Virus record (IMG/VR): IMGVR_UViG_3300036987_000328
Coordinates: 1-30,598 of that record
Strand: one strand, 5' to 3'
DNA length: 30,598 nucleotides
Source: a virus
Taxonomy: Duplodnaviria; Caudoviricetes
Every line of letters begins with the position of its first letter. Positions within the stretch are counted from its first letter, which is position 1. Of the stretch, positions 12,147 to 30,471 are shown in pieces. Position numbers and translations under genes: made by a program. The notes below the pieces were generated by a model, which had not been told where the DNA came from, made no database searches, and saw only the letters and a program-made list of their open reading frames with translations.

Positions 12147-12226
12147 ACACGGCTTGTACCGAAAAGTGGTTATTCAAATTTCTTCCATATATCGTTTATA
12201 AGCCATTTTATTTTGTTAATTTTGGT

Positions 12227-12380: not shown

Positions 12381-12406
12381 AAAAAGCCGGTCATGTGATC
12401 GGCTTT
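12381..12406 (-). terminator. Intrinsic terminator of the leftward head operon
   Basis: Minus strand AAAGCCGATCACATGACCGGCTTTTT right at the stop codon. Confidence 0.7.
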
Positions 12407-12974
12407 AGTTTTTTAGTCCCGCTTTCTCAATTATCGTAGCAATCTCCGGTTGTGATAAACCAATAAACACGCGTTTAACTTTACTACGCCCAGCGCCGGC
12501 ATGGTGGAAACCGGCTATCTCCGCAGCGCGGTTATCCGTAAAAGATATTGTAACGGACCTCTCAGCTTCGTTCACTCCTGTGACTTTGAGCGCGCGCAAC
12601 ATTCCGCCCGCCCAGTTTAAAGTTACTCTATCGGTTTCGCGCCCTGTTAATTCTCTCAGTCGTTTGTAACCGCCCTGTAAAAGTATCCAGGTCATTTTAT
12701 TGTTTGTGTAGATAAAGTCCTTACCTTGCATATCTTTCCAAATTTCTCTCGCTCTGGTAACTCCGACCTTTGCTTTGAAACTCCCCAAAGGCATCGGAGC
12801 GGGCTTAGTAGAATATTTGTTTGATCCGCTTGACGAACCCGCCAAGAATATCCCTTGCAGAGTTCGAGCTTTTATAACAGCGAGCGTGTGTTTACCGAAA
12901 TTAAGCAGCAGCGAGCGTGTTACTATTTTTTTTATAAGCTCATCGGCGTTAATATTTATTACATTCTCGCTCAG
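12405..12974 (-). CDS. Virion morphogenesis protein (Mu gpG-like), probable CTG start
   Basis: VTLNWAGGMLRAL...AEIAGFHHAGAG...RVFIGLS motifs; the frame stays open upstream of 12845 to CTG 12974, which overlaps the portal TGA. Confidence 0.75.
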   Translation of the reverse strand: MSENVININADELIKKIVTRSLLLNFGKHTLAVIKARTLQGIFLAGSSSGSNKYSTKPAPMPLGSFKAKVGVTRAREIWKDMQGKDFIYTNNKMTWILLQGGYKRLRELTGRETDRVTLNWAGGMLRALKVTGVNEAERSVTISFTDNRAAEIAGFHHAGAGRSKVKRVFIGLSQPEIATIIEKAGLKN

Positions 12975-14140: not shown

Positions 14141-14142
14141 AA

Positions 14143-15729
14143 TTAAAACCTTTCAGAAAATTTTCTTTTTTGTCCGCCGATGTAGGAAGACTCAGAGCTG
14201 TTCATTGAATTTGCCATAAACCACACTTCCTTGTATGCTGAAGCAAGTGCATCGGGAAAATCTTTGTGCGGATAATTTCCGTAACCTATAAGCTGTGCCT
14301 GTGCCTCGATACCGTCCCGATTTTTGAGAAAATCCTCAGCGAATATAATGTCTTTCATCGAGTATGGAGTTTCAACGGTTTCTATCCTCCATTCCTTTTT
14401 ACCTTCAACGCGGATTTCGCGTATAGGTAAACGAGGACGGTCAGCGGTGGAAACGAACAGTCTTTGAAAATCTAAGAACTGCGCCTGGAAGAAATTAGAT
14501 TCCCAACCGAAGAACACAATGTGGTCTTTATATCTTTCATAAAGAGAGTAAAGCCCGAGAAAATAATCTTCCCAGCCGCATTTACGGCAGAACGCATCGG
14601 GTGAATAAAACCTGCGTGTAGTTTTTGAATAGAATAAAACCGCGGCGGCTTTATAGCAGGATGTTTCGCCCATAGCCGGATCGCAGAAAACAATTCCACG
14701 CGCGTCTTTTGGCAGAGTCTTAAAAGTAGTCCAATCCTTCATTAGGAACCTGGTCCCCTCAGGCGGTGTCGGCTTTTGCTGGTATTCAGAATTCCAAACG
14801 GATTTTGATACTCCAACGCCGAGACGCATTTCTTCCTCGGTCTTATACTTATAGCGTTCGGACCAGGTGGGCTTTTGTTTCTTATCATCCCATGCAGGTA
14901 TGATATTTAACTCGATAGAGGGATGGAGCGCTGCCCGGTCTGTATCGAACATCTCGGCAATGATGTTAAAGATACAGGTTGTCCGCGCGTTGTTACCCAG
15001 CATAACGGCAGCTCCATCGTCGGCAAGCGCTGGGAGGAAGTCTCTCTCGATTACTTCGAGTTTAAATTTTGAAATTTCAATATTGATAGAAGTTGAAAAA
15101 TCTTCGAAGTCGTCGAACTCAAAAAAGTCCGGTCGTGTTTTGCCAAGCTCGCCGCGTGCTGTAACCTTCGCCGAGTAGGATGAGAAGAGAGTGCCGAGCG
15201 CGTTATACTTATGCGGTAAAACGTAAAACGCTGCCATAGCATTCCAGCCCGGGTCAATCAGCTCTCCGAAATCAGCCCGTATCTTTGCGTTGTACTCCAT
15301 CTCCATGCGAACATACTTAAAATCTTTATATACGAGGTCTATCGTGTCGGATACTTTACCGTAAAAATGCCGCTTACCAAAACAAGCGCACCATATTTTG
15401 AAAATTCTGAATATCAAAGTTTTGCCGAAAGTTCGCGGACCTGCTATGAATACGCACTTCTTATCCGTGCGCTGTGCCTGTTCTATCATCCATTTATGCT
15501 TAGCGTTAAAAGGATGGTTAAAGTAATAATCCGGAAAGTAGGTTTTTGCAAAATAGAAAAAATCGCTCTGAGCTTTCAGGATCCGTTTTTCTTTTTGCTC
15601 GGCCCATTCCTTTGGAAGCTCTTTATCTCCGCGCTCGCGGAGGGCTTGCATAAGCAGCTCACGCTCGCGTCGTGCAAACTGATGTTCGAGCAGAGAGAAG
15701 GAGTTATTTATTACTTCTCTGATTTCCAC
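14143..15729 (-). CDS. Terminase large subunit
   Basis: Walker A GPRTFGKT, Walker B FFEFDDFED, nuclease motifs VFCDPAMG and HKDFPDALA. Confidence 0.9.
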   Translation of the reverse strand: MEIREVINNSFSLLEHQFARRERELLMQALRERGDKELPKEWAEQKEKRILKAQSDFFYFAKTYFPDYYFNHPFNAKHKWMIEQAQRTDKKCVFIAGPRTFGKTLIFRIFKIWCACFGKRHFYGKVSDTIDLVYKDFKYVRMEMEYNAKIRADFGELIDPGWNAMAAFYVLPHKYNALGTLFSSYSAKVTARGELGKTRPDFFEFDDFEDFSTSINIEISKFKLEVIERDFLPALADDGAAVMLGNNARTTCIFNIIAEMFDTDRAALHPSIELNIIPAWDDKKQKPTWSERYKYKTEEEMRLGVGVSKSVWNSEYQQKPTPPEGTRFLMKDWTTFKTLPKDARGIVFCDPAMGETSCYKAAAVLFYSKTTRRFYSPDAFCRKCGWEDYFLGLYSLYERYKDHIVFFGWESNFFQAQFLDFQRLFVSTADRPRLPIREIRVEGKKEWRIETVETPYSMKDIIFAEDFLKNRDGIEAQAQLIGYGNYPHKDFPDALASAYKEVWFMANSMNSSESSYIGGQKRKFSERF

Positions 15730-16223
15730 TTTTCAAGTTCCTCTCTAAATATTTTTATAACGTCAGCTTCCGATGCCTCAGGCATAAACCTGCGAACGAT
15801 ACGGGCAATTACTTGAGCATCCGGGCGTTTAAGATGGTTCTCGATCTTCTGCTCGTGTATTTGTTTTTGAATCCGCGCGACCGTTTCGAGTATCTTTGCC
15901 TTCTCAACTATTGTTAGTTTTGCTTTTTCAATAGCTATCAATGTATTGGCTGCCTGAATTTCCAGTAGCGTTTCGATGGGCTCACCGTCTCTTATTAATT
16001 TATCGGTGGTAGGCAGCTTGGGAAGTTGTATTCCTTTCTTACTGCCCTTGTCCGCTCGTGGTGATTTATCGAGTTTGACACGCTGCTGTAGGATATTATA
16101 TATAGTCCCAGGCGGTACTTTGTAAGTATCTGCTATAGATTCAACGCTGATTTTTTCCTGATTATACAGCCGGAAAATTTCGCGGCGTGTTTTTATTCCT
16201 AAACGTTTCCCTTTGCGTATCAT
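15711..16223 (-). CDS. Probable terminase small subunit
   Basis: N-terminal HTH plus helical oligomerisation region; directly upstream of the large subunit. Confidence 0.65.
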   Translation of the reverse strand: MIRKGKRLGIKTRREIFRLYNQEKISVESIADTYKVPPGTIYNILQQRVKLDKSPRADKGSKKGIQLPKLPTTDKLIRDGEPIETLLEIQAANTLIAIEKAKLTIVEKAKILETVARIQKQIHEQKIENHLKRPDAQVIARIVRRFMPEASEADVIKIFREELEKWKSEK

Positions 16224-16630
16224 AAATTGACCTTGGTTTTAAATTGCACAACTACCACTGCGCTGGTGGATGAAGAATCTATTACCTCTATCGGTTCACT
16301 TGATAACTCAATGGCGCAAGTTGAAATTGTTTTATCAGCCAATGCGCTTACCACATTCGTTGCAACATCAAGTGCTGCATCGATAGCAGAGACGCTTTTA
16401 TGTTGAGCCGACGCTAAACAAAAAACAGAAATATTGATCGGAAGGGATATGCCGGCGCCTCCGCTCGCGACTACTGCCGATTCAAATTCTAACCAAACGA
16501 GACAGCCGGGAGTTTTTGTGGTTGTAGCTTTGCCAACCTCTGCGCGCTCGGCAGTAAGTATACCTATTGTCGTTTTGTTGTCCTCAAGATATTTTCTGAT
16601 TGCTTCCCATAATGTACTGACTGAATTCAT
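16220..16630 (-). CDS. Probable neck / tail-terminator protein (Mu gp37-like)
   Basis: Size, TPGCLVWLEF motif, position after the gp36-like gene. Confidence 0.5.
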   Translation of the reverse strand: MNSVSTLWEAIRKYLEDNKTTIGILTAERAEVGKATTTKTPGCLVWLEFESAVVASGGAGISLPINISVFCLASAQHKSVSAIDAALDVATNVVSALADKTISTCAIELSSEPIEVIDSSSTSAVVVVQFKTKVNL

Positions 16631-17017
16631 TTACCATTCCTCCACTCTTCTAGGCATAGCAGAAAATGCGGGTGTCGTTGGCTCGGCGGGTTCTTCTGTA
16701 ACGAGATCGCCGTTTTTAAATTTTTCGAGTGTCATTATAGCATCGTCGTATTGTGTTTTACGCCTGTCGAGTTCTTCTTCCGCTACAGACGCTTGTCTGC
16801 CTGATAAAATCCAAATCACTATGCTTGTAGCGACATTAACTAATATTTTTTTTGCATCCTCGGCACTAACCGGCGGCGCAATGCCGGTGTAGGTAGTAAC
16901 AATATCGTCAGCTTGTGCAATTGCTTCCGTTAGTTTTTCACCATCTTCTCCTTTGAGTATAGTGAGCTGCGCTTCATCTAAAGCGGCTGTAATTAATTGT
17001 TCACTCGTAAACGGCAT
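16631..17017 (-). CDS. Head-tail connector (Mu gp36 / DUF1320-like)
   Basis: EAIAQADDIVTTY...RKTQYDDAIMTLEKFKNGDL. Confidence 0.75.
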   Translation of the reverse strand: MPFTSEQLITAALDEAQLTILKGEDGEKLTEAIAQADDIVTTYTGIAPPVSAEDAKKILVNVATSIVIWILSGRQASVAEEELDRRKTQYDDAIMTLEKFKNGDLVTEEPAEPTTPAFSAMPRRVEEW

Positions 17018-17093
17018 ATGATCCTTTTAATAGTTATGGGTAAGATAGAAGTTATCCCTTTAAAATCTACTCATAAGTATATGTATCTATGGC

Positions 17094-17123
17094 TTGCAGA
17101 TATTTTGACAATAATTATATTTG
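17094..17123 (+). promoter_or_regulatory. Candidate rightward late promoter in the divergent intergenic region 17018-17145
   Basis: TTG-19-TATATTTG, matching the Bacteroidota-type TAnnTTTG element. Confidence 0.45.
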
Positions 17124-17145
17124 AATCAAAAGTTAGAATAGGATT

Positions 17146-17697
17146 ATGAAAGAAAAGCTAATTGCGATTTTAAAATCACTCGGTTTATACACCGACGACA
17201 AGAAGGTTGAAATAGATAAAGCCTTAGAGGCAATCGAGGAACCGAAGCCGGCTCCGAAAATAGCATCCACACCGACTGATGAGTCGATAGAGTTAAAAAC
17301 TATGGTCGATTCCTTGAAAGAGCAAAACAAACAGCTCTTTACCGCGATAGCTGAGGAGAAAAAGGCGCGTGAGGCATCGCAGAAAGCAGTTGCCGACCAA
17401 ATGAAAGCCGATAAAGATAAGAAAATAACAGACGCTTTAGTAAAAGCGGAAGCGGATGGAAAGATAAGCAAAGCCCAAACCGACGGTTGGAAAAAAATAT
17501 TGGAATTAGATTATGAAACAGGATCCGCGCAGCTTACCGCTTTGCCCGTTAACCCTGCTTTCAAAAAAGCAGATGATAAAAAAGCAGACGATAAAAAAGG
17601 AGATCCGCCGTCAAATAAAAACTTAGGCTTAGCCAGTTCGGCTGAACCGAAAATTCTTGATAGTATAATGAAAATGGCGAATATAACAGATAACTAA
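17146..17697 (+). CDS. Capsid scaffolding protein
   Basis: Charged coiled coil, ALVKAEADGKISKAQ motif, KKADD repeats; directly upstream of the capsid gene. Confidence 0.7.
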   Translation: MKEKLIAILKSLGLYTDDKKVEIDKALEAIEEPKPAPKIASTPTDESIELKTMVDSLKEQNKQLFTAIAEEKKAREASQKAVADQMKADKDKKITDALVKAEADGKISKAQTDGWKKILELDYETGSAQLTALPVNPAFKKADDKKADDKKGDPPSNKNLGLASSAEPKILDSIMKMANITDN

Positions 17698-17732
17698 TTA
17701 ATCCGCCTCAGGCGGGAAGGAGAAAAACAATA

Positions 17733-18686
17733 ATGTTACTACCACAAATTTCAAACTTATCGGGCAGAGGAGCACAACTGCTCGCAGTTATAATGCAAAA
17801 CGTACCGGTATCGCAGTACTTACATTTTAAACAGGATCCATCTACACATTTTGTCGGTGCGGATAAGAGTACATTCAGTGGCAGCGCTGCGCGCGCAGTG
17901 AATGCGGCTATTCAGCGGGATGCTCAAGCTCCAACCCTCACAGCGCGGTCACTCGCTCTGTATGGAAGAGAGATCTCCGTTGACGATGTTTATAAGTTGG
18001 ACGCTAATGTAGGTCTTTCCCCTGAAGGATTAAAGATGTTAGCCGACCGCCAGCTTAAATCGCTCGCCGCCAAACTTGGGGTCGAAATCGAGACCGAATT
18101 ATTTACCGGCACCGACGCATCCAGCCGGATGTTAGGCATAGCCATCTTCGTAAAAGATGCTGCCTCCGGCGGACAAACGGCAGCATTAGGTTTTACTACT
18201 GCCGAACTCGCGGCTATGAACACGCAAGTGTCACTGCAAATAAACACTTCCGCTAACCAGGATGCTTTCATAGAGTTGCTCGAAAAAGAAATAGCCAAAG
18301 TGCCGGGTGCGAACCTCATAGTTTGCAACCCGAACCTTAAAGCTCGCCTCTCCACAGTGGCACGTCGATTAGGAGCTGCCGGCGAAACGATCAATTCATT
18401 TGGACAGCAAGTCCAGACTTTTAACGGCATACCGATTGTGCCGGTAAATTTAACATCTATTACGCAGACCGAATCGGACGGAACGAATTCCGATTGCACG
18501 TCGCTCTACGTCATACGTTCTGCCGAAGACCTCGGCGTAGCTTTCAGTACGAACTCTGGTTTCTACTTCACGGATTTCGACCTGAGCGAAGTTAAACCGA
18601 ACGGAATTGCGCGCTTGCAATTTTTCCTCAATCTCACGGTCGAACGTACCGATGCGATGCGCAGGCTTTCAAGAATACGTTTATAA
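17733..18686 (+). CDS. Major capsid protein (HK97 fold)
   Basis: 317 aa; NSFGQQVQTFNGIPIV...CTSLYVIR motifs; AAGGAG RBS. Confidence 0.85.
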   Translation: MLLPQISNLSGRGAQLLAVIMQNVPVSQYLHFKQDPSTHFVGADKSTFSGSAARAVNAAIQRDAQAPTLTARSLALYGREISVDDVYKLDANVGLSPEGLKMLADRQLKSLAAKLGVEIETELFTGTDASSRMLGIAIFVKDAASGGQTAALGFTTAELAAMNTQVSLQINTSANQDAFIELLEKEIAKVPGANLIVCNPNLKARLSTVARRLGAAGETINSFGQQVQTFNGIPIVPVNLTSITQTESDGTNSDCTSLYVIRSAEDLGVAFSTNSGFYFTDFDLSEVKPNGIARLQFFLNLTVERTDAMRRLSRIRL

Positions 18687-18710
18687 TTAATTCATAATTA
18701 ATTCATGAGC

Positions 18711-18741
18711 GGGTCCCGGTAGTAATATCGGGGCCTACTTT
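18711..18741 (+). terminator. Hairpin after the capsid gene (weak terminator or stabiliser)
   Basis: GGGTCCCGGTA-GTAA-TATCGGGGCCT with G-U pairs and a short U tract. Confidence 0.5.
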
Positions 18742-18770
18742 AAAAAAAACAAAACTGAATCCCACAGGAA

Positions 18771-18986
18771 ATGAACGCTGAAATGATATTGTCACAATTG
18801 CAAACAGACGTAGCTGTGATAAAAGAACGTCTCGAAACGTTTATTAAAATACACGATAGTTCGGTAATTCAAAACGCAAAAAAAATCGAGGACCATGAGC
18901 GCCGCTTACGCTTCCTTGAAAGATATGCCGCTATACTGATTGGCGCCATTGTAGTAATTAACTTAGTCGTTTCATTTATAAAATAA
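18771..18986 (+). CDS. Holin-like / XhlA-like protein (coiled coil plus C-terminal TM)
   Basis: IEDHERRLRFLE followed by a TM helix; lysis cassette. Confidence 0.65.
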   Translation: MNAEMILSQLQTDVAVIKERLETFIKIHDSSVIQNAKKIEDHERRLRFLERYAAILIGAIVVINLVVSFIK

Positions 18987-18997
18987 GGATTATTCAA

Positions 18998-19378
18998 ATG
19001 TTAAAAAAAATCATGCAAATATTCTTACTAACATTATTGATGTTGGTAATCGTCAACACGGCATTGTCACAGGAGCCGGTAGTCCAGTCGTTTCCGTCTG
19101 CTATCCTGTTGATACCTTTAGCGCTTGGTATGTTCGCGCATTGGCTTAAAGGCTTTACACGCGGAACAATTCCTGCAAGCTGGGGCGGTTGGTTAATAGA
19201 TAATATCGGCTTTACTATCGCCGCATTGGTTGCCGGCGTTGGGCAGCTTGTTGGTTTTTACCAGCTCAGTCCGGAAATACTTAATTCCGGTGGTGTTGGC
19301 GCTTGGTGGATAGTATTTATGATGGGCTATGCTTCAGATTCCGTGATGAACACTAACGGAAAGTTTGTTAAAAGTTGA
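18998..19378 (+). CDS. Holin-like membrane protein with a signal-peptide-like N-terminus
   Basis: Three TM segments after ...NTALS|Q; adjacent to the lysozyme. Confidence 0.6.
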   Translation: MLKKIMQIFLLTLLMLVIVNTALSQEPVVQSFPSAILLIPLALGMFAHWLKGFTRGTIPASWGGWLIDNIGFTIAALVAGVGQLVGFYQLSPEILNSGGVGAWWIVFMMGYASDSVMNTNGKFVKS

Positions 19379-19803
19379 AAACTTCTCCTGCCGGCATATC
19401 GCTAATTAAAAAGTTTGAGGGATTGTCATTAGTCCCTTACTTTTGTCCGGGTAGAGTACTAACTATCGGTTACGGACACACCGTAACCGCAAAACCTGGG
19501 ATGAAGATTACAGCGAAACAGGCTGAAGAGTTGTTAAAAGACGATTTAAAGTTTTTCGAGAAAGCAGTGAATGATTTAGTGAAATCACCTCTTACTCAAA
19601 ATCAATTCGACGCCATAATATGCTTTTGTTATAACGTAGGCGTCGGCAATTTTAAAAAATCCACGATGTTAAGGATGTTGAATCAGAAAAAATATTACGA
19701 TGCCGCCGATCAATTCTTAGTATGGAATAAGATAAAAGATAAAGAATCGCTCGGTTTAACTAACCGTCGTGCGGCTGAAAGAAACCTGTTTTTAGGATTA
19801 TAA
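19375..19803 (+). CDS. Endolysin, GH24 lysozyme
   Basis: LIKKFEG...TIGYGHT...LTQNQFDA...YNVG...GLTNRRAAE. Confidence 0.93.
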   Translation: MKTSPAGISLIKKFEGLSLVPYFCPGRVLTIGYGHTVTAKPGMKITAKQAEELLKDDLKFFEKAVNDLVKSPLTQNQFDAIICFCYNVGVGNFKKSTMLRMLNQKKYYDAADQFLVWNKIKDKESLGLTNRRAAERNLFLGL

Positions 19804-19818
19804 AGGAGAAAATTTTAT

Positions 19819-20280
19819 ATGGCACTAGACAAAACAAAAATATTCGGCGCGGCCGCGGATTTATTCATAGCTGTTCGTACAGAACCTGATACCCCTGTAG
19901 CCCACGCTACTTTCCCGGGCACTGCCTGGAAAGATTGTGGTTACCTCAAAGCGAAAACTGCAAAGATCGATTCCGAGAACCATGAGATCGATTTACACAC
20001 CGGAGAGAAACACCAGTTAGGTGTAACGTTAAAATTCGAAGCAGAAGGGCTTGAATGTGATTCGACCAAGTTTACACAGCTCGAGAGTTTTCTTAACGCT
20101 CGCTGCGATGTGATCTTAAAAGCCCGGGGATCTGCCAGGCACTGGAAACTTCTCGGTATGAATATCTCCCATGGATTCAAGGGAGTGTTCGCCGCCGATG
20201 ATGTCCTGAGTATTCCGATAAAAGGTCAGGTTATGGGTTCTAAAGTCGGGGACTGTTTCGATGAAATAACAATCACTTAA
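19819..20280 (+). CDS. Probable major tail tube protein, copy 1
   Basis: 153 aa, beta-rich, strong RBS, upstream of chaperone and tape measure. Confidence 0.7.
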   Translation: MALDKTKIFGAAADLFIAVRTEPDTPVAHATFPGTAWKDCGYLKAKTAKIDSENHEIDLHTGEKHQLGVTLKFEAEGLECDSTKFTQLESFLNARCDVILKARGSARHWKLLGMNISHGFKGVFAADDVLSIPIKGQVMGSKVGDCFDEITIT

Positions 20281-20294
20281 TAAAGGATACGCTT

Positions 20295-20756
20295 GTGGCT
20301 TTAGATAAAACAAAAATATTCGGCGCGGCTGCCGACCTTTATATAGCTATTCGAGAGTCTGCGGACACGCCGGTTTCTCATGTATCGTTTCCCGGCGACG
20401 ATTGGTATCATTGTGGTTACATCAAAGCGAAAACTGCGAAGCTCGATTCCGAGAACCATGAGATAGATTTACACACCGGCGAGAAACATCAATTAGGCGT
20501 AACGTTAAAATTTGAAGCAGAGGGTCTGCAATGCGATGTAGGAAATATTCAATTTCTTGAAAACTGTCTAAACAGTCGCTGCGATGTAATCCTAAAAGCC
20601 CGGGGATCCTCCCGGCATTGGAAACTACTCGGTATGAATATCTCTCACGGATTCAAAGGTGTGTTTGCTGCCGACGATGTCCTTAGTATTCCGATAAAAG
20701 GTCAGGTTATGGGTCCTAAGGTTGGCGACTGTTTCGATGAAATTACTATCACTTAA
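20295..20756 (+). CDS. Probable major tail tube protein, copy 2 (GTG start)
   Basis: 127/153 residues identical to copy 1 by manual count. Confidence 0.7.
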   Translation: MALDKTKIFGAAADLYIAIRESADTPVSHVSFPGDDWYHCGYIKAKTAKLDSENHEIDLHTGEKHQLGVTLKFEAEGLQCDVGNIQFLENCLNSRCDVILKARGSSRHWKLLGMNISHGFKGVFAADDVLSIPIKGQVMGPKVGDCFDEITIT

Positions 20757-20759
20757 TCA

Positions 20760-21056
20760 ATGAGCGACCAGAAAAAATATAACATTGGCGATAAGGAGGT
20801 GCAGCTTGCACCTCCTACACCAAGACGCCTCTCTTCTTTCCTGAAAACTGCCGGCATAGACGACCCTAATACCATCGCGGACAAAGAACAACATGCGGCA
20901 ATCGGGATGAAGTTGTTTCAGGTCCAAATTGAGCCAGATAAATTAAAAGCGATGATGAATGTGTGTATTCAAGACGATGCTAATGTTGATTGGTACGATG
21001 TGGACTCCCGGGCAATCATGGAAATAATCTCGGATTTTTTTTCTCAATTCAGTTAG
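20760..21056 (+). CDS. Tail assembly chaperone (lambda G analogue)
   Basis: Lies between tube and tape measure; ends just after a T8 slippery run. Confidence 0.75.
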   Translation: MSDQKKYNIGDKEVQLAPPTPRRLSSFLKTAGIDDPNTIADKEQHAAIGMKLFQVQIEPDKLKAMMNVCIQDDANVDWYDVDSRAIMEIISDFFSQFS

Positions 21057-21262
21057 AGTTTAAGAAAACTGATGAATATTTTTCAGACTTCGGATCAGCA
21101 AAATCGCACGATGGAGAATATGAGTCGGGCTGGGTTGAAAAGTTCGTTTTCGCGTCTTCAGGTAGAATCGCTACCGAGTTTTTAAAATTATTCAATGAAG
21201 TGCGTTGGAGCGATGTTGTTCTGATTGCTCTTCTGAGAAGTGAGTCGGGAAAACAAGATTAA
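21035..21262 (+). CDS. -1 frameshift extension of the chaperone (GT analogue)
   Basis: GAT TTT TTT TCT at 21033-21044; the -1 frame is open to 21262. Confidence 0.75.
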   Translation, partial: FFFSIQLEFKKTDEYFSDFGSAKSHDGEYESGWVEKFVFASSGRIATEFLKLFNEVRWSDVVLIALLRSESGKQD

Positions 21263-21431
21263 CGAATGAAATCCAAAGTATGAATGGTAATAAGCAGATA
21301 CCTAACCCAAAATATACTACGATAATCGAATACAACAATTCCGGTGTAGGGGTATAAATGAAAATCAAAACAGCGATGATAAGGTATCCCGCTGTGTATA
21401 TTAAATAATATTTCCTTAATTCTTTAATCAT
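21192..21431 (-). CDS. Antisense small two-TM membrane protein, 79 aa
   Basis: MIKELRKYYLIYTAGYLIIAVLIFIY...; fills the chaperone-tape measure gap; has its own promoter. Confidence 0.6.
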   Translation of the reverse strand: MIKELRKYYLIYTAGYLIIAVLIFIYTPTPELLYSIIVVYFGLGICLLPFILWISFVNLVFPTHFSEEQSEQHRSNALH

Positions 21432-24075
21432 GGCAGATATAACTCTTAAACTAATTATAGACCCTTCCGGTGCTGTAAAAGCTATCCAGCAAGTGGAAGG
21501 CTCTGTTAATAATTTAGGCAAAGAATTATCAAATGTCAAACAGCCCGCTAATGCGCTCACTGGTGTTCTTGCTAACGTTGCTGGGCGTGCCGCCGGTTTA
21601 TTTTCCATTTTTAGCGCAGTCAAATCTACCTTCGGTGATTACGTTTCAGCGTTTAACCAATCCGAAAAAGCCGCCGCATCGCTCACTCAAGCATTAAAGC
21701 AGCAAGGACAATTTACTCAATCCACTTTGGAGGACATGAAGGCTTATGCTACACAATTGCAAGAGCTGACAGGATTCGAAGATGATGCAACAGTCCAAAC
21801 TATGGCGCAACTCACGGCTATGGGTTTACAAGGCGACCAATTAAAACAAGCCACATTACTTTCTCAGGATTTAGCAACTGTAATGGGTACAGATATGAAA
21901 TCCGCAGCCCGCGTCATGGCTGATGCTTTTAGCGGTAACGCCTCGATGCTCGGAAGGTATATAAAAGGTTTGAACGAAGCCGACATTAAACAGCGCGGCG
22001 CTGTTTCAATTATCGAACAGCTTACAAGAGCGGTCGGCGGACAAGCTGAAGCTGTTGGCAATACTGGATATGGTTCAATCAAAAAATTTGAAGCTGCTTG
22101 GGGCGACTTAAAAGAAAAATGGGGCGAGTTGATAAGCAATGTTTTGGCTCCTCTATTACAAAGTTTGTCGTGGATAATAAAAGGAATAATAGACGCTCCT
22201 CCCTATGTGCACGCGCTTACTCTTGGATTCGTAGCTCTGGCTGGGGCTTTAGCGCTTGTCAATACCTCGATGGGTGGACTGCCATTGATATTAGGGGCAA
22301 TAGTTACCGGCGGTGCAATATTAGGCGCATGGATCGGCACGATGAATAAAACGGCGGACTCTACGAGGTCTGCGTCGGACGAAATCAAAGTCCTCCAAGA
22401 TAGAATTAAAAACCTCAAAGTTGAAGCCGGGCAAACTAAAGAGATAGACGATCTGCAAAAAAAACTTGACTCGTTAGGGAAGCCGACTGAATTTACGCTT
22501 AAAGAAGAGATAATTAAATCAAAAAAAGAGGTAGAGGAATATACCTCAAAGCTCGAAGACGGGAAAATAGTGCTTAACCAGGTGCTTGAATTAGAAAAAC
22601 AAGGCAAAGACGTTAGGTCTGAAAATCCTGAACTTGCTGAAAAATATTTCCAAATATTCTCTGATGGCAATAAGGAGGCACTCCTGCAACTAACAGAGTA
22701 TGAAAATAAAGCGTCGGCAGCATCAAGCCTTCTTAAGGAGAATGAGCTTCAATTAAAAATATTCCAGAAGCAAAAATCTCTTGAGCGGGCTGAAGCGGAT
22801 AAGAAAAATATTGCAGACCAGAAAAAAGATTATGCTGATTTAATGGCATACAAAAAAAACGTAGCCAACGAATCTGAACTCCTCACCGCTCAATCGGCAG
22901 AAGAAGAAACACAAATCCGTAGGCGCCAACTTGAAAATCAAATTAATGATTTGCGGTTATTGGGTGCACTAACTATAGCTCAAGAAAAAGAATTGGCTGG
23001 CGCTGAACTCGAACTTAAAAAAGTGAATGCCGACGAAGAAAAACGCATAAAAGAAGAGATCCTCTACGTAAGTATGCGTCTCAAGAAATTGGAACTTAGG
23101 ACTATTGCCGACGCTAACGAGCGAGAGATTGCCGAGATAAATGAGAAATACCAAATAGAAATTGAAGCTGCCGGTCGAAACACTGAGCTGAGGAGTCTTT
23201 TAGAGAACGAACTCGATAGAGAGATAAGATCGATCCGTGAAAGACAACAGGATGAAGCGCTTGATGCGAATATATTTTACCAGACTTTAAACCAATCTTT
23301 ACAGGCTTCATTCCGAACCGGCTGGGCATCCATAATTGACGCCTCAATGAGCGGTGCTGAAAAATGGAAAGCGATATGGAACTCGATGAAACAAGCCGCA
23401 TGGAATGTTATAGGTAGCGTAGTACAAAAATTTATTGAAGGTAAAATTGCTGAATTATTTATAACAAAGACGGTTGAAACAGGGAAGACGGCTGCAACCA
23501 TCGAGGGTGAAGCCGCTCGTACCAGTGCAACACAAGCCGGCGTGTTGGCGCGTATTGCCTCTACAGGTTTAGAAATAATTTCATCTCTTGCTGGAGCTGC
23601 GGCATCTATAGTGGCAGCCATATCTAACGCGATTCGCTGGGTGTTTACGACTATACCTTTCCCATTATCACTTGGTATGGCCGGTGGCGCCGTGGCTGCA
23701 ATAGGCGGATTGTATTCAGGAATTAAATCAGCTTTCGGCTTTAAGGAAGGCGGAGTGTTCAAAAAAGGACAGCGCGGATTTATTGAAGGCACAAAAACAG
23801 AAATCATACAGCCGGAAGAAACCTTTATCTCTTATCTGAATAAAAAGATTATACCGACTATCGTAAACACAACCCGCATCATAACTATGCAGCAGCCTCA
23901 ATTAGCATACGCGGGCGGTGGCAGCGATGCGCTTCTTCGCGAAATGCAGGAACTCAAAACAGTTTTGAAGCGTAAAGATTTTAAAATTGGAATTAGCGGC
24001 ACACTTAACGGACAGCGGTTTGCTAGGGATGAAAATCCCAAAGCGGAACGGTTTAGGAAGTCTATAACGAAGTGA
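21430..24075 (+). CDS. Tail tape measure protein
   Basis: 881 aa; Ala/Gln-rich helices, coiled coil, hydrophobic segments, FKEGG near the C-terminus. Confidence 0.92.
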   Translation: MADITLKLIIDPSGAVKAIQQVEGSVNNLGKELSNVKQPANALTGVLANVAGRAAGLFSIFSAVKSTFGDYVSAFNQSEKAAASLTQALKQQGQFTQSTLEDMKAYATQLQELTGFEDDATVQTMAQLTAMGLQGDQLKQATLLSQDLATVMGTDMKSAARVMADAFSGNASMLGRYIKGLNEADIKQRGAVSIIEQLTRAVGGQAEAVGNTGYGSIKKFEAAWGDLKEKWGELISNVLAPLLQSLSWIIKGIIDAPPYVHALTLGFVALAGALALVNTSMGGLPLILGAIVTGGAILGAWIGTMNKTADSTRSASDEIKVLQDRIKNLKVEAGQTKEIDDLQKKLDSLGKPTEFTLKEEIIKSKKEVEEYTSKLEDGKIVLNQVLELEKQGKDVRSENPELAEKYFQIFSDGNKEALLQLTEYENKASAASSLLKENELQLKIFQKQKSLERAEADKKNIADQKKDYADLMAYKKNVANESELLTAQSAEEETQIRRRQLENQINDLRLLGALTIAQEKELAGAELELKKVNADEEKRIKEEILYVSMRLKKLELRTIADANEREIAEINEKYQIEIEAAGRNTELRSLLENELDREIRSIRERQQDEALDANIFYQTLNQSLQASFRTGWASIIDASMSGAEKWKAIWNSMKQAAWNVIGSVVQKFIEGKIAELFITKTVETGKTAATIEGEAARTSATQAGVLARIASTGLEIISSLAGAAASIVAAISNAIRWVFTTIPFPLSLGMAGGAVAAIGGLYSGIKSAFGFKEGGVFKKGQRGFIEGTKTEIIQPEETFISYLNKKIIPTIVNTTRIITMQQPQLAYAGGGSDALLREMQELKTVLKRKDFKIGISGTLNGQRFARDENPKAERFRKSITK
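21511..21539 (-). promoter_or_regulatory. Promoter TTGACA-17-TAAATT inside the tape measure gene
   Basis: Same hexamers as 2044-2072; 80 bp upstream of ATG 21431. Confidence 0.55.
23127..23148 (+). repeat. Internal copy of the left-end site GATTGCCGAGATAAATGAGAAA within the tape measure gene
   Basis: 22/22 identity to 933-954. Confidence 0.9.
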
Positions 24076-25289
24076 GAAAAGATATTTACATAGATGGTGT
24101 AAACTACAATGCCGAACCTCAACGCTGCTTACTTAAAAATGGCTTGGATCGTCTGACATTTCAAATGGAAGATGAAGACGGCAAGGGGACCATTTCCTCT
24201 GCTAAGTTAAGATTTACGAACATCGGGAATAAATTTGATGCAATGCTGAAGGGATATTCGAAACCAAAAGTCAATATTTCGCTTGGTGGATTCAATGTGT
24301 TTAGCGGAGTTGTCTCTGGAGACGGGATAAATTACGACTTCGATAATAAATTAATAGATACAGAAGTAGTAAGCGATGAAAAAACATTCATAGAAAACGC
24401 AAAGATTACTAAGCTCAATGATATTAATTTAACCGGCATCCCGGTGGAGATATACCGAATATCAAATCCGATAGCCGGACAAGCGGAAACGGCGTTAAGG
24501 ACTATGTTCCCGATCGATAGTTTGCTATCCCAGATATTTCATCACTTTGGGTATAATTTTAAAATTGCCACCCCAAACAGCTATGAATATATGTTAGGAG
24601 GTACAGCTGTGTCTAAGCCTTTCTTCCCTGATATTAATTGTTACGATATGATTGTCGACCTTGTAAAACTATATAATGCTATATGGTGGATAGAGAAGAA
24701 TGGCGATGTATACTTCGTGCCTAAAGTATGGTACCTCGAGGGAATGAAACAGTCGGTTTCACTTTCCGTGATGATGCTAAAAAACACACACAAGGTTACT
24801 GGTGTAAAAGTGGGAAAAGATATTATTAGTTTTAGTTATGCAAATATCGACTATAAACATCCAAATCTGTGGGATACAGACCTGCGCGCAACAATTAAAA
24901 GATATACACCCTTGGTAACCGAAGACGCAATTGTATCTTTAATCAAATTTCCAAATTTGAGATCGACTCTGATACGGAGCATAAGCGCTGTTATTTATGA
25001 TGACGATCCCGGGTGTTTTGTCGTCAAATACGATGGCAACCCACCATGGGGAATTGTTGTTGAACCGGCTATTAATATCCTCCAAAAATATTATAACATG
25101 GAGCTGCTTGGCACATCTGAAATTGAGGCTGAATATTCGCTAATGAATGATTACAGTGTTATCCCTGAATTAATTAAACCATATAGGAAGTTGTCTACGT
25201 CTGGAGATAATACTCATTTTATACGATCGGTAGAAATCGACGCTACTGATGATAAGGCAAAAATTAACGCGATCGGGTATCAGCTATGA
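24072..25289 (+). CDS. Tail tip / hub protein
   Basis: Follows tape measure; CYDMIVDLVKLYNAIWWIEKNGDVYF hub-like motif. Confidence 0.6.
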   Translation: MRKDIYIDGVNYNAEPQRCLLKNGLDRLTFQMEDEDGKGTISSAKLRFTNIGNKFDAMLKGYSKPKVNISLGGFNVFSGVVSGDGINYDFDNKLIDTEVVSDEKTFIENAKITKLNDINLTGIPVEIYRISNPIAGQAETALRTMFPIDSLLSQIFHHFGYNFKIATPNSYEYMLGGTAVSKPFFPDINCYDMIVDLVKLYNAIWWIEKNGDVYFVPKVWYLEGMKQSVSLSVMMLKNTHKVTGVKVGKDIISFSYANIDYKHPNLWDTDLRATIKRYTPLVTEDAIVSLIKFPNLRSTLIRSISAVIYDDDPGCFVVKYDGNPPWGIVVEPAINILQKYYNMELLGTSEIEAEYSLMNDYSVIPELIKPYRKLSTSGDNTHFIRSVEIDATDDKAKINAIGYQL

Positions 25290-25783
25290 GTTTAATAAAG
25301 GGCAAACCCGATTTAAGATTTAAGGTTTACAAAGGGGGAACACTTGTGCACGACTTTACGCTCGATGGATATACCGAATTCGATGAGGACTATGAACCGG
25401 TATTCCTATCGCACGAATTAGATAACAACGAATTGGTACGCAGGTTGGATGGATTCCGCTACCGAGCGCGTGTTTATTTTGAGAAAGTAGATGGAACGAA
25501 ACTGTTAGCTCTTGCAACAATAGTAACTGTTGGCGATTATGATAAAATATTGTTCTACCCAAACTCGATAGATAAGCCTTTGTACTATCTGGATGTAACT
25601 ATTGACGACGATACGGTTAAGCTTGCCACGTTTTATTTGTTGGCTCAGAAGGAATTTGAATTAAAACTGCTTAGTAGAAAATTGGAGGACTGGATTCCTC
25701 TTACGCTTGCAGACTTTACGCATTGGGGTAATATCAGCATTGCGATACAGGATATTACAAAAACATTCTCACAGCTTAATTAG
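25286..25783 (+). CDS. Distal tail-like protein
   Basis: Size, beta-rich composition and position only. Confidence 0.45.
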   Translation: MSLIKGKPDLRFKVYKGGTLVHDFTLDGYTEFDEDYEPVFLSHELDNNELVRRLDGFRYRARVYFEKVDGTKLLALATIVTVGDYDKILFYPNSIDKPLYYLDVTIDDDTVKLATFYLLAQKEFELKLLSRKLEDWIPLTLADFTHWGNISIAIQDITKTFSQLN

Positions 25784-25795
25784 AAAGAAAAAATT

Positions 25796-26767
25796 ATGGC
25801 AGAAATAACATTAGTTCCAGGAACCGACACTCCCAACCAGGGACGTAACAAATGGAATACAAACGACACAAACCTCAATGCGGAACTTGGTGCGGTGTCG
25901 GCGGCGCTAACAGCGCATAAAACCAGCGCGGACCATGATGGCAGGTACTCCACGGAAGACGAAGTCGATGCTAAAGATGCGGTTATTCAAACCAATCTGA
26001 ATAATCATAAAGCCAGCGCCGACCATGACGGCTCGTACGTGAAGAAGGCCGGTGCCGAGACTATTGCCGGGGCAAAAACATTCTCGGAATCCGTGAAAAT
26101 TGTTAAGGCAACGAACACCGCCGATTGCGACATCACCGCAAACACCGCTCAAGTACGTGTGCGCGCAAATGCCTATACTGATTATAAAGCATTATCGATC
26201 GAGCTGAATAAAAATACAATAGCGGACCCGAGTTGGGATTTTGTTTTATTTGCGGCGTCAAATGATGAAAGACTCATTTGCAGTAGAGACGTTTATGCCA
26301 AAGGAAAAAAGCTCGCAACTGAAGAATATGTCCAGGACAGGGTAAAGACTGGAATCAATAACATTCCATTAGCTCTCTATATTGCCTCACCGGCGCAAAA
26401 CACTACTTACACTTTTCCTATTATCGGTGGCGGTACTGTGAAAATCCCGATAGTTCGTGCGATCAATATTCGAGAATACAAAATATTGACCGAGGGAGTT
26501 CTGGTCACCATGGACGACGGCGTCGTGTCTTATCAATTTTCACAGTCAGAGATTAATAATGTTTTGGGCAATAACATATTAGTGCCTAAGATAATCACGG
26601 GACCGGCGACCCCGAATATGCAAATCAAACTTAAATTATTTGCTCTCAAAATTACCGGCGGCGCACTTGTGGAAACACAAATATATGATAGCGGATTCCT
26701 AATGAATGCTTCTCTAAGTTCAGGGACACCAACCACAATTAATATGAACATTATAACAAGTTTGTAG
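25796..26767 (+). CDS. Tail fibre / baseplate protein, no signal peptide
   Basis: N-terminal DTPNQGRNKWNTN, two HKxSADHDGxY repeats, ETIAGAKTF and LATEEYV fibre motifs. Confidence 0.7.
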   Translation: MAEITLVPGTDTPNQGRNKWNTNDTNLNAELGAVSAALTAHKTSADHDGRYSTEDEVDAKDAVIQTNLNNHKASADHDGSYVKKAGAETIAGAKTFSESVKIVKATNTADCDITANTAQVRVRANAYTDYKALSIELNKNTIADPSWDFVLFAASNDERLICSRDVYAKGKKLATEEYVQDRVKTGINNIPLALYIASPAQNTTYTFPIIGGGTVKIPIVRAINIREYKILTEGVLVTMDDGVVSYQFSQSEINNVLGNNILVPKIITGPATPNMQIKLKLFALKITGGALVETQIYDSGFLMNASLSSGTPTTINMNIITSL

Positions 26768-27303
26768 TGGATAGAATATTCTTAAATAATTCAGCCGAAA
26801 TTATGCTCGATGCGCTTGAGCGGATCGTCCATATTTTTATTAACCTTCCTGGAGAAACGACGCTGTCAGAGGTTTATATAAACAAAGGTAACGGCTGGAT
26901 GCCGTACAACGGAACAATTCAGGTGAATGGTATTGATGCAGATTTACCGGGACTCTTGCAACCCGGGCAAAACGTTATAACACTTATTGAGCCATTCGTA
27001 GGAGTTGGAATTTATCTCAAGGGTTATGATTTTCTAAATAGTCTCGATCTAAAAATCCTTAATGTCCCCGGTGTTTCAGGTAAAGATGTAATAATTAGAG
27101 GAGTTAAAGATATTACAACCGACGGTACCGAAATATTATTCCCATCGCCAATAATGGGTAGCTACGAGGTTGCAAAACTCTGGTGTATCGATTCCACCGG
27201 TGTAGACCGTTCTGTTCAATTTTACAATAAAACTCAAAACAGTTTCTGGGCAAAGTCTCTTCGCTCAAACGCAAAGCTTTGTTGGATTGGGTTCCAAACA
27301 TGA
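26767..27303 (+). CDS. Tail-associated protein with C-terminal small beta-sandwich, no signal peptide
   Basis: Coupled GTG start; ILFPSP...YNKTQNSF...CWIGF pattern seen at fibre C-termini. Confidence 0.55.
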   Translation: MDRIFLNNSAEIMLDALERIVHIFINLPGETTLSEVYINKGNGWMPYNGTIQVNGIDADLPGLLQPGQNVITLIEPFVGVGIYLKGYDFLNSLDLKILNVPGVSGKDVIIRGVKDITTDGTEILFPSPIMGSYEVAKLWCIDSTGVDRSVQFYNKTQNSFWAKSLRSNAKLCWIGFQT

Positions 27304-27677
27304 GCTTAAGATTATTTATACTACTCTCGTGTCTGTTGTTTATGTCTTTTGTGTCTTATTCTCAGTCCGATGAGGTCATTGATAAAACCAAAATAATGTC
27401 CGATACAACCATTGTTTTAAAAGTACTACAATTGCCGTCGGGTAGTTATGGAACTGCGACGCTAAGCTCCACCGGCGACAGTATCCGGGTATATGTCATT
27501 GGAGGGATGAACCAAAATGCAAAAATATTAGTAAGTTGGCACGGTGTAAATTTTTTAGGAGAACTTGGCGTTCGTAACCGCTCGCCGGATGGTTTTACTA
27601 TCTTTTCAAACACAGATGAAGTAACTAATATTGAAGTGATATACTTAATTTTGGACAATAAAATAATGTTACCATAA
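27300..27677 (+). CDS. Signal-peptide-bearing small tail-module protein
   Basis: ATGA-coupled start 27300; MSLRLFILLSCLLFMSFVSYS|Q. Confidence 0.7.
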   Translation: MSLRLFILLSCLLFMSFVSYSQSDEVIDKTKIMSDTTIVLKVLQLPSGSYGTATLSSTGDSIRVYVIGGMNQNAKILVSWHGVNFLGELGVRNRSPDGFTIFSNTDEVTNIEVIYLILDNKIMLP

Positions 27678-27689
27678 GGAGAAAAACAA

Positions 27690-29150
27690 ATGAAAAATTT
27701 AAATAGAATCGCTACACTGATGCTGCTTTTCGTATCATTAAGTTTCGCACAATCGGACAAATCAATCAAATGGTGGGATGTCGGTAGTAATCAGTTTAAA
27801 ATACTACCTATACCATTTATACCGATGGACTCTACGCTCGCCGCTAACGTAACCACACCCGTGGCTGGGAAGGGAAATATTTTTATAGGGCTCGACAGGA
27901 GGATGTATGTTAAATGGGTTGGTGGAACAGTTACAGAGATTGGCGGAGCCAATACTGCTCTGAGTAATGTAGCTAATACTGCAGTACCTGTTAACCTCAA
28001 TCCTAATGCTAGTAACTCAGTTCAGTTAGGACAACGTGAGTATTATTGGAAAGGGGTGTACACTAACTTCGGCAATGGTGTAGCATTTAATTATGATGTA
28101 AGTAATGCTATTTTTATGCGCCCCTTAGCGGGGAGTATTGCAGAAGATAGGTCGGTTTTTGTACCCAGCAGCGCAACTGGGTCGGTAGTGCTTTGCGGTT
28201 CTGCATCTGCACCATTGGCATTAAACGGTGGAACCGGAGATATGACGATTAGTAATATTCCGCTATCAACGCTAGGTCAATCCAGTGCTACTACCGGACA
28301 GATTCCGAAATGGAACGGTACGGTATGGGCAGCCGCAAACGATGAGACCGGTAGCGGAGGATTGTCTAGTTTAAACGGACTAACTGCATCTACTCAAACT
28401 TTTGCAACTGGGACAGCAGGCACAGATTTTGGAATTACGAGTACAACGTCTACTCACACATTCAATATCCCAACCGCTTCTGCCACTGCGCGAGGTTTAA
28501 TGTCAACCAGCACTCAAACAATAGCCGGGGCGAAAACGTGGAATGATAACCAGACATTAGCTGCTGGTAAATATACGATATACAAGGGTTCGTCTAACAA
28601 CTACGGAATCAATGCCAACAACAGCACAGGCTCATTAGAGTTCACTAATGATTTGGGCGGTGGAAGCGAGTCAGTGCAGTTACGCCTAGCCAGTGCAGGC
28701 ATCTCCACAATGCCCATATTTCCATTTGGCAATAATCTTTACGATGTTGGAACGTCAAGTTTACGTTATAAGGACGGTTGGTTTGCCGGCAACGTGTATG
28801 GTACATGGGCTGGTAGCACTGTGACGGTCGCAAAAGGCGGGACAGGGTTCACTTCAGCTGGCTCGTTGCATTCGATTCTAGTTAATACTGATGGAGCAAA
28901 TTGGTCGATTAAAATACCGCATCGGAATGGCACTCTGCAAGCAGCGGGCGATACAGCATTTATTGCAGTTACAGGATTAGAGTCTGGAGGGAAGGCGTTT
29001 GCAAGTTGGGGAGTTGTCGGAGGTACAGATGTTCCACTCGGAACCTTATACATTAAAGAAATTGGCAATGGTTATGTTAGAGTAAGGAGTAATGCAGACG
29101 AACAAGTAAACCTACCTATCATCGTCACAATTACTGAGTGGGCAAACTGA
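27690..29150 (+). CDS. Tail-fibre-like protein with Sec signal peptide
   Basis: MKNLNRIATLMLLFVSLSFA|Q; fibre motifs GQIPKWNGTVW, QTIAGAKTW, YDVGTSSLRYKD, VTVAKGGTG; TAAGGAG RBS. Confidence 0.75.
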   Translation: MKNLNRIATLMLLFVSLSFAQSDKSIKWWDVGSNQFKILPIPFIPMDSTLAANVTTPVAGKGNIFIGLDRRMYVKWVGGTVTEIGGANTALSNVANTAVPVNLNPNASNSVQLGQREYYWKGVYTNFGNGVAFNYDVSNAIFMRPLAGSIAEDRSVFVPSSATGSVVLCGSASAPLALNGGTGDMTISNIPLSTLGQSSATTGQIPKWNGTVWAAANDETGSGGLSSLNGLTASTQTFATGTAGTDFGITSTTSTHTFNIPTASATARGLMSTSTQTIAGAKTWNDNQTLAAGKYTIYKGSSNNYGINANNSTGSLEFTNDLGGGSESVQLRLASAGISTMPIFPFGNNLYDVGTSSLRYKDGWFAGNVYGTWAGSTVTVAKGGTGFTSAGSLHSILVNTDGANWSIKIPHRNGTLQAAGDTAFIAVTGLESGGKAFASWGVVGGTDVPLGTLYIKEIGNGYVRVRSNADEQVNLPIIVTITEWAN

Positions 29151-29851
29151 TGAGATTAATATTTTGGCTAATGTTGTTTATGATCATTTGGTGTAGCGTC
29201 TCCTATTGCCAGACATCGGGAGACGTGTCACTATGGCGTACTAACCAATGGAAGCCATCACCTATTACTGGGGACAACAATATTACTGTGACGTATCAAG
29301 CAACCCCGCCGGTATCATTACGATTTGCACTCAAAAACACTGTGCTTGCTGATACGTTAAAGGCTAATAGTGGACAACTTACTTTAGTTTCCTTAACTTA
29401 CAATGGAGAGACACCTGTGATGCATTCTATGCGCACAACATTCACAGGCACAACAAGCAAGTCGCTCAATTACCCAGACGCAACCATGTCTACACTTTCT
29501 GTGGTAGCTGGGGTAGACGGTGCAATACGAGATACTCTTACATACGCAATTAGTTTTCGCAAACCGACAGTCGCAGATAGCTGTTTTGTATGGCGTGTAA
29601 AAAAGAGCGGACTCACGATTATCGCCGGTGAAGCTAAACGAGAAAGTGGAACATCAGCTACTGTTAACATCAAGAAAAATGGTGTTGATATGTTTACCAA
29701 TTATGCAAGCACGGCTGCATTTGCATCTATGGGAAGTGTATCGAACGGAACGCTTACTATTGGCGACAGTATTATGGCCACGGTGAGAGCTGTAGCAGGA
29801 ACACCTAACGCTGTCTTTATCCAACTAACGTACGTGAAGGTGTTGAGATGA
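29150..29851 (+). CDS. Signal-peptide-bearing beta-rich tail-module protein
   Basis: TGATG-coupled start 29150; MRLIFWLMLFMIIWCSVSYC|Q. Confidence 0.7.
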   Translation: MRLIFWLMLFMIIWCSVSYCQTSGDVSLWRTNQWKPSPITGDNNITVTYQATPPVSLRFALKNTVLADTLKANSGQLTLVSLTYNGETPVMHSMRTTFTGTTSKSLNYPDATMSTLSVVAGVDGAIRDTLTYAISFRKPTVADSCFVWRVKKSGLTIIAGEAKRESGTSATVNIKKNGVDMFTNYASTAAFASMGSVSNGTLTIGDSIMATVRAVAGTPNAVFIQLTYVKVLR

Positions 29852-30390
29852 GGTTGTTGTTAATTATATTATTGTTATTACCGATACCGTCGTTTGGGCA
29901 ACAATACTTACGCCCAGACGGCAATGTATTACAAGGATGGACAAGTTGTACCTATACTACTATTGACGAAGTAACGCCAAGTGACGCTGATTATGCTACC
30001 AATAATGATTTATGCACTGCATCGTTAGTAGTTAAAGTATACGAAGGCGTTAATGTTAAAAATACTTGGAGCGGCAGTCTTACATCTTCATACACAACAT
30101 ATTCTTTCACGTTCTCAAGACCAGATGATTTTAATAACTTGTCGCTTAGGTTTACGGTGAATGGAAATAACTGTGACGAAGAAGACCCACAATCACTTAG
30201 CAATGATTTTTGGGTAAGTATGTCTAACCCAAGTAATACTCCAGCTACTGGAACGTACACATGTAGATTTCGAGCAAGAATGTCGGTTAATATTATACCT
30301 GACCCAAACGACGTTCGATTATCGTGGGCAGAAATCGAAGTCCCAAGTGGAGAGTCAAGCACAAACGTTATGATTTTTGGGGACCAGTGA
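29848..30390 (+). CDS. Signal-peptide-bearing beta-sandwich protein, last prophage gene
   Basis: MRLLLIILLLLPIPSFG|Q; four Cys; ATGA coupling. Confidence 0.7.
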   Translation: MRLLLIILLLLPIPSFGQQYLRPDGNVLQGWTSCTYTTIDEVTPSDADYATNNDLCTASLVVKVYEGVNVKNTWSGSLTSSYTTYSFTFSRPDDFNNLSLRFTVNGNNCDEEDPQSLSNDFWVSMSNPSNTPATGTYTCRFRARMSVNIIPDPNDVRLSWAEIEVPSGESSTNVMIFGDQ

Positions 30391-30423
30391 TTATTTGTGA
30401 TATATTACGTGTCATATTGTCCA

Positions 30424-30471
30424 TTCTCATTTATCGTGTAAATACTTTCTCATTTATCGCGTCACGATACA
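30424..30471 (-). repeat. Right end with two tandem putative transposase-binding sites (30424-30436, 30446-30459) and terminal CA
   Basis: TTCTCATTTATCG twice, the inverse of the left-end motif. Confidence 0.9.

Follow-up and report, generated by a model that had tools for sequence, protein, structure and literature searches.

Four consecutive genes with putative Sec leaders close the tail operon of a Mu-like siphoprophage and may encode an exported tail appendage

We analysed a 30,598-nucleotide stretch of DNA from a tailed virus (Duplodnaviria; Caudoviricetes), positions 1 to 30,598 of IMG/VR record IMGVR_UViG_3300036987_000328, here called the window, which contains a complete Mu-like siphoprophage. 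The last four genes of this prophage, at the end of its tail operon, encode proteins named SP125, SP486, SP233 and SP180 after their lengths in amino acids (aa), each with a putative Sec leader followed by Gln. The main features are listed in Table 1. The element begins with TG at 875 and ends with CA at 30471, and the sequence CTAT is duplicated on both sides (871-874 and 30472-30475). Taking out the element together with one duplicate left a stop-free host open reading frame (ORF), and the empty insertion site was read in contigs of three of four DNA runs (X1-X3). The cassette ends 81 bases short of the right prophage end. The four genes thus lie inside exact prophage ends and are therefore phage genes, on which ground the possibility that they were host genes misread as phage was rejected.

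Table 1. Coordinates of the main features of the prophage and its tail-end cassette
Feature	Position	Strand	Remarks
Complete Mu-like siphoprophage	875..30471	.	TG...CA ends; 4-bp target duplication CTAT; empty site
Holin-slot membrane protein, fifth leader-bearing gene	18998..19378	+	ALS + Gln; holin role from position before lysozyme gene
Leaderless tail core	21430..25783	+	Tape measure of 881 aa (PHROG match), 405-aa hub-like and 165-aa distal-tail-like proteins; latter two named from position
Leaderless 323-aa fibre with TIAGAKT motif	25796..26767	+	Weak BppL_N and PHROG tail matches
Leaderless 178-aa protein	26767..27303	+	Candidate docking adaptor for the putatively exported cassette
SP125, 125 aa	27300..27677	+	21-aa leader, SYS + Gln; short stalk; beta domain paralogous to SP486 C-terminal domain
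SP486, 486 aa	27690..29150	+	20-aa leader, SFA + Gln; conserved N-terminal domain, exchangeable shaft, conserved C-terminal beta domain
SP233, 233 aa	29150..29851	+	20-aa leader, SYC + Gln; conserved QT-G--I/V--W start motif; C-terminal beta domain
SP180, 180 aa	29848..30390	+	17-aa leader, SFG + Gln; beta-sandwich; C-terminal hydrophobic strand
Right prophage end with two transposase-site-like repeats	30424..30471	+	From end-repeat scan and empty-site reading

An original prediction, made from the letters of the window, had placed the four leaders with their Gln at these starts, and all were found in the ORFs as described. Leaders were called by a hydropathy heuristic (best 10-residue mean within the first 28 residues) and not by SignalP. 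The values were 3.08 for SP125, 2.53 for SP486, 2.96 for SP233 and 3.47 for SP180, apart from those of the 33 genes classed as cytoplasmic or virion, which reached at most 2.09. A run of four leader genes among 41 genes, five of them leader-bearing, had a chance probability of p=0.002. The fifth leader with Gln, that of the holin-slot gene, had been missed by the prediction. The holin-slot leader was kept in the related contig L002 (=L004; L002 3021-3422), and a similar gene was present in L005 (11366-11785).

The cassette starts were coupled or closely packed, also in agreement with the prediction: an ATGA overlap at 27300, a 12-nucleotide gap with AGGAG before 27690, TGATG at 29150 and ATGA at 29848. 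Three of the four starts therefore overlap the preceding stop codon. The motif TIAGAKT, said to be common to SP486 and the leaderless 323-aa fibre, was present in both. An hhalign comparison paired the beta domain of SP125 with the SP486 C-terminal domain (probability 85.7%, E 5.5e-6); that the 178-aa protein shares the SP125 C-terminal domain was unsupported (hhalign probability 0.4%). For the four mature proteins, Pfam gave no family above its cut-off, the S74 chaperone included, and PHROGs gave none. The sequences thus establish where the cassette lies, how its starts are coupled, that leaders are present and conserved, and that the mature parts are akin to phage virion domains.

For the survey of homologues suggested with the prediction, 18 leader-bearing members were aligned, four from the window and 14 from relatives, with three leaderless SP180 rows left out. 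By the heuristic, all 18 showed the pattern of Sec/signal peptidase I substrates, namely a short n-region, a hydrophobic h-region, a small residue at -1 and Gln at +1, and the survey thus bore out conserved signal peptides with Gln in 14/14 of the leader-bearing relatives aligned. Between the window and L002 the leaders were identical at 24/75 positions (32%) and the mature parts at 390/717 (54%). The predicted leaders of the cassette drift in sequence and their signal pattern stays; conservation led us to reject the idea that they are chance hydrophobic starts. It is also very unlikely that they do not work as export signals, the proteins remaining as uncleaved inner-membrane anchors until lysis or being made as cytoplasmic forms from internal starts. 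Signal-anchor-release is known for endolysins, and one database gene call (P0172) starts SP233 at Val26 (GTG), behind the leader; but this position is Ile in three of three relatives, the residues around the predicted cut persist in every aligned member despite the leader drift, and cleavage would restore the natural N-terminus of the SP180 family.

This last point comes from the SP180 domain, for which 2,923 representatives were found at E<=0.001. Among the best 150 of them, the domain was N-terminal without a leader in 129 (79 starting with MAQ), internal in 14, behind a leader in five and behind a short extension in two; two of the five leader-bearing representatives were in the query and one was doubtful. 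In 31 other viral loci, some of them near-duplicates, it was N-terminal without a leader in 25 and internal in six. The 15 loci given with their neighbours had the domain mostly among head, neck or tail-like genes, often fronting long repeat shafts, and two family members were fused to minor-tail-protein domains. In a profile of 24 leaderless domains, position 1 corresponded to SP180 residue 19, one past the predicted mature start, and cleavage would therefore regenerate the normal N-terminus of the family. The leader of SP180 thus appears as an add-on to a virion-type domain, since 129 of the best 150 are leaderless and start at the cleavage point. In many of the short members the C-terminus is a hydrophobic strand (RRIYVIS, RRVIVIS), and SP180 has NVMIFGDQ; this strand may be a docking element, which would leave the N-terminus free for a leader. 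The SP180 fold had no PDB or viral Foldseek match at E<=0.001, and the fold search VIA gave nothing clear (best Z 5.8, Hsp110). The segments of SP180 are ordered N-B-A-C in the window, P0121 and P0122 and N-A-B-C in leaderless homologues and P0123, a non-circular permutation. In a low-GC phage (L046 7995-10053) a leaderless SP180 homologue is followed by a protein of about 500 aa with leader and Gln, before the lysis genes.

Related capsids (50-67% identity) formed nine clusters, three of which had members named Ignavibacteriaceae, Ignavibacteriales or Melioribacteraceae; one of these Ignavibacteria-type clusters also had a member labelled archaeon. The host is thus likely to belong to the Ignavibacteria, judging from its capsid relatives. 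According to PMC5837995, Sec substrates of Bacteroidota carry Gln at +1 after the signal peptidase I cut (the Q-rule), with a predicted Gln+1 rate of 77% in Ignavibacterium album. The leader architecture and Gln+1 of the cassette are alike; the rule as given there was described for cellular proteins. Export, the first part of what had been predicted, is strongly supported because the Gln+1 leaders are conserved although diverged, the likely host group has a high Gln+1 rate and leaderless homologues start at the mature N-terminus; we consider export of all four products highly probable. Two capsid relatives, L006 (9370-9798) and L013 (about 11070-11588), have leader-bearing proteins with several D-[ST]-x motifs adjoining the major capsid gene, which are candidate exported capsid decoration proteins.

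The cassette recurred in other tails. L002, a non-Mu phage with RecT/YqaJ-type genes beside the tail end, had the same tail order, with the tail core syntenic, a leaderless orthologue of the 323-aa fibre, a 29% orthologue of the 178-aa protein and all four leader genes. It was the sole return of a metagenome scan, and neither the Dit-like protein nor the capsid had a relative in two scans of genome contigs. The siphophage L053, whose tape measure and tail tip are unrelated, carried three cassette genes at the tail end. These were SP125 (72% for the mature portion), SP486 and, as the third, a leader gene that shares the start motif of SP233; a different, unrelated leaderless gene of about 180 aa preceded them in the slot of the 178-aa protein. 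SP486 had seven orthologues of 310-486 aa in which both end domains were fixed and the shafts differed, and the L053 orthologue matched PHROG tail spike and virion structural families. The nearest Atlas clusters of SP233 were 86-100% viral at scores of 0.87-0.88, a lead only. Also in L053, a gene resembling homing endonucleases (8547-9020) sits between the SP125 and SP486 orthologues, and the tape-measure gene has intein-like stretches (1-5735), both read by eye.

Cargo is commonly carried in the final genes of prophages, and the cassette stands at such an end. It could thus be lysogenic-conversion cargo: a secreted fibre or adhesin of host type that the lysogen displays or releases and that never enters the virion. 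The SP486 shaft repeat is common to leader-bearing bacterial proteins, and bacteria do export phage-like fibres: in PMC10769870 all 21 Bdellovibrio MAT fibre proteins (21/21) have a signal peptide. The MAT fibres, which have a conserved beta domain of about 130 aa behind that peptide, are exported and built of phage-fibre-like modules, as here, but they are cellular surface adhesins and not phage genes, whereas the cassette lies inside a prophage and not in a chromosomal non-phage context. Moreover, coupling ties the cassette starts to the tail gene before them. Sites resembling promoters numbered 27 versus 31.5 expected by chance, with patterns that may not fit Ignavibacteria promoters; no Bacteroidetes-type promoter pattern was found beyond 19445, and no terminator-like site on the plus strand from the tape-measure gene to the cassette. 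The slot is identical in three phages and the SP180 domain belongs to a phage family. We therefore regard cargo as an unlikely explanation.

Two cultured Cellulophaga phages offer a precedent for leader-bearing virion proteins. In siphophage phi10:1 (KC821618), gp091-094 have a leader with Gln, lie behind a short gene without a leader where the tail operon ends, and are annotated in GenBank as 'structural protein, experimental MS/MS' (tandem mass spectrometry); gp095 has leader and Gln too. In podophage phi18:3 (KC821620), gp085-087 have leader and Gln and an MS/MS structural annotation, and nine other proteins so annotated are leaderless. Both phages thus have consecutive leader-and-Gln genes as in the window, seven of them annotated as virion by MS/MS; they differ in host class, and their annotations make no mention of leaders. 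The precedent is an analogy, because no homology was detected, and its basis is the GenBank annotation.

These phages bear as well on another possibility, already raised with the prediction, that the four products are late-expressed blockers of receptors, or decoys. Export would take place in the lytic phase and release at lysis, and the products would mask receptors on debris or neighbouring cells or block superinfection without being on the particle. Such a role is equally compatible with late coupling and export; Llp of phage T5 is a receptor blocker of this late, exported kind, and a leaderless fibre is present for adsorption. Nevertheless, a cassette of four parts, in which fixed end domains enclose a variable shaft, has the look of a built appendage, no lipobox lies at the predicted cleavage site of any of the four proteins, and the analogous proteins of the two Cellulophaga phages are annotated in purified virions. 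Blockers are consequently as improbable, in our estimate, as cargo. Presence of the four products on the virion, the second part of the prediction, is instead quite likely, with support from the place in the tail operon, the coupling of translation, the phage domain families and the cultured-phage precedent.

The tail-end place and shaft motifs recall T4 long fibres, pyocin fibres and AP22 gp53/gp54, together with a weak fold likeness of SP486: the six best fold matches of its C-terminal domain were phage tailspikes or pyocin fibres, at Z values of 5.1-5.7 that are under the reliability level of the tool and serve as a lead only. The cassette accordingly lies in the tail operon with fibre or virion-type domains, and the fold matches are weak. 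The particles of tailed phages are completed in the cytoplasm before lysis. T4 fibres are built separately and join late, and canonical fibres are made and attached in the cytoplasm without leaders; the cassette differs from these in carrying putative export signals. Virion proteins with cleavable leaders are known from filamentous phages (M13 pIII and pVIII), whose coat proteins stay membrane-anchored and are added during extrusion. The phage in the window differs in having terminase, portal, tail and lysozyme, and its four mature cassette proteins look soluble. The nearest published systems are the Bdellovibrio MAT fibres, the Q-rule and the filamentous phage coat proteins; among the listings of open-licence literature searched, no paper described virion parts that a tailed phage exports through Sec. 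A term search of a Tunturi phage paper (PMC11924767) gave no match for signal peptide, and passages of a rumen phage paper (PMC5723332) note signal peptides without naming tail proteins.

The prediction had further proposed that the exported proteins are glycosylated and disulfide-bonded. In Bacteroidota the O-glycosylation site is D-(S/T)-(A/I/L/M/T/V), described for cellular proteins in PMC10897501; sites of this kind occur in the cassette, and the motif is unenriched in the cassette alone. There were two D-[ST]-[AILMVT] sites in SP125, two in SP486, three in SP233 and none in SP180, that is 7 versus 4.1 expected (p=0.11), and the L002 cassette had 6 versus 3.7 (p=0.15). The host gene was enriched (5 versus 1.4) and leaderless virion proteins were not (6 versus 10.6). 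All six alignable cassette motifs were kept in L002, where Asp was retained at 6/6 motif positions versus 16/31 others (p=0.03), and at family level there were 30 motifs versus 17.3 expected, counting related sequences that are not independent. Motif enrichment was rejected as proof of glycosylation, being non-significant in both the window and L002. What stands of this claim is the presence of sites in three of the four proteins and their retention, at a frequency not above chance, and O-glycosylation of SP125, SP486 and SP233 is plausible from their sequences. A spanin-like gene at 8298-8870, hydrophobic at both ends and located in the early/middle region off the lysis genes, had 6 motifs versus 1.2 expected.

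The four Cys claimed for SP180 are present (34, 56, 109 and 139), and three of them are kept in the two closest orthologues. Leaderless SP180-type domains carry 0-3 Cys too, and SP486 and SP233 have one unpaired Cys apiece. Paired cysteines in SP180 were rejected because only three are conserved and the leaderless domains carry them as well; the case for disulfide bonding is thus weak, and disulfides in the cassette proteins appear doubtful.

The motif count, with no site in SP180, is one of several observations that weigh against a virion appendage made by export. Both structure models were poor, with predicted local distance difference test (pLDDT) values of 60.7 and 38.6, the latter for a monomer. 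The repeat of the SP486 shaft is not phage-specific, since leader-bearing proteins named from Filimonas and Ferruginibacter have it too. The cassette was matched in none of five fragmentary capsid-relative records and was absent from four further capsid-relative stretches, all fragments; tblastn against a phage collection found no detectable homologue of three searched cassette proteins in cultured phages, and similarity to phi10:1 gp091-095 was negligible (best E 0.019). In addition, the leaderless 323-aa fibre could itself be the receptor-binding protein. One capsid relative (L016 773-5213) ends in a leaderless 909-aa fibre followed by small Avd-like and reverse-transcriptase-like genes, a tail end that, read by eye, resembles a diversity-generating retroelement.

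Weighing these points, we consider a Sec-exported tail-appendage cassette, loaded at lysis, the best reading and a probable one. From the features described we infer cleavage, modification, docking order and timing as follows. A single late transcript would most likely yield a tail that is built in the cytoplasm and has the leaderless 323- and 178-aa proteins at its tip, and the four coupled products of that transcript would pass through Sec and be cut by signal peptidase I to expose Gln, which would become pyroglutamate if the rule of the host group applies. SP125, SP486 and SP233 may be partly O-glycosylated, and the fibre and the small accessory domains would be assembled in the periplasm. 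The putative docking order is the 323/178-aa tail tip, SP125 as adaptor and SP486 as a trimeric fibre; SP233 and SP180 would serve as accessory or receptor-binding domains, attached through short motifs at their termini. The appendage would meet the cytoplasm-built tail once lysis breaches the inner membrane, or in the lysate.

The rest of the prophage resembled Mu in several respects. Pfam and PHROGs matches identified a repressor, Mu-type transposase, Gam, Mu portal, terminase, gp36, capsid, lysozyme and tape measure; a MuB-type ATPase had no Pfam or PHROG match among 43 ORFs scanned. The tail was taken as non-contractile because no sheath was detected with either database. Target duplication is 5 bp in Mu and 4 bp here. 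A 13-base repeat, TTCTCATTTATCG, was located at 887, 941, 30424 and 30447, two copies per end, with 10 matches in all versus 1.3 expected. Extra copies lay internally at 4908, 12133, 12424 and 23135, one of them perfect and within the transposase gene; two fell in 12133-12436, the stretch that separates the early region from the inverted head cassette. The genes for terminase, portal and neck (12405-17017) are on the minus strand, divergent from the capsid and tail genes, and the neck genes are inverted in L002 too. Two tandem, near-alike 153-aa genes resembling tail tubes (19819-20756) correspond to a single copy in L002. The insertion was polymorphic, with empty-site contigs at about 4-6 times the depth of the prophage contig (X1, X2); in run X1 the prophage contig had a depth of 108 and the flank contig 638. 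The DNA of the window may itself stem from X1 and X2. No sequence variants were found in the four DNA runs.

The locus contributes a transposable siphophage whose ends are exact and whose host is likely one of the Ignavibacteria, a cassette present again in tails that are unrelated, and the comparison of leader-bearing and leaderless proteins inside one domain family; the proposed route of biogenesis would be an undescribed one for tail appendages. On balance we lean slightly towards a broader two-compartment line in Bacteroidota-type hosts. There, the Sec system, signal peptidase, glutaminyl cyclase and O-glycosylation of the host would build a portable, glycan-coated receptor-binding appendage in the periplasm, to be snapped on the tail at lysis, and leaderless virion domains would have been recruited more than once by gain of an N-terminal leader. 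Should the virion contain the four proteins, its apparatus for adsorption would mature in a different compartment and might bear host glycans, receptor-binding parts would be beyond the reach of cytoplasmic defence sensors, and lysis would become a step of assembly. The range of hosts would in that case hinge on the export and glycosylation machinery of the last host, and pipelines that take a signal peptide as proof that a protein does not belong to the virion would miss receptor-binding proteins.

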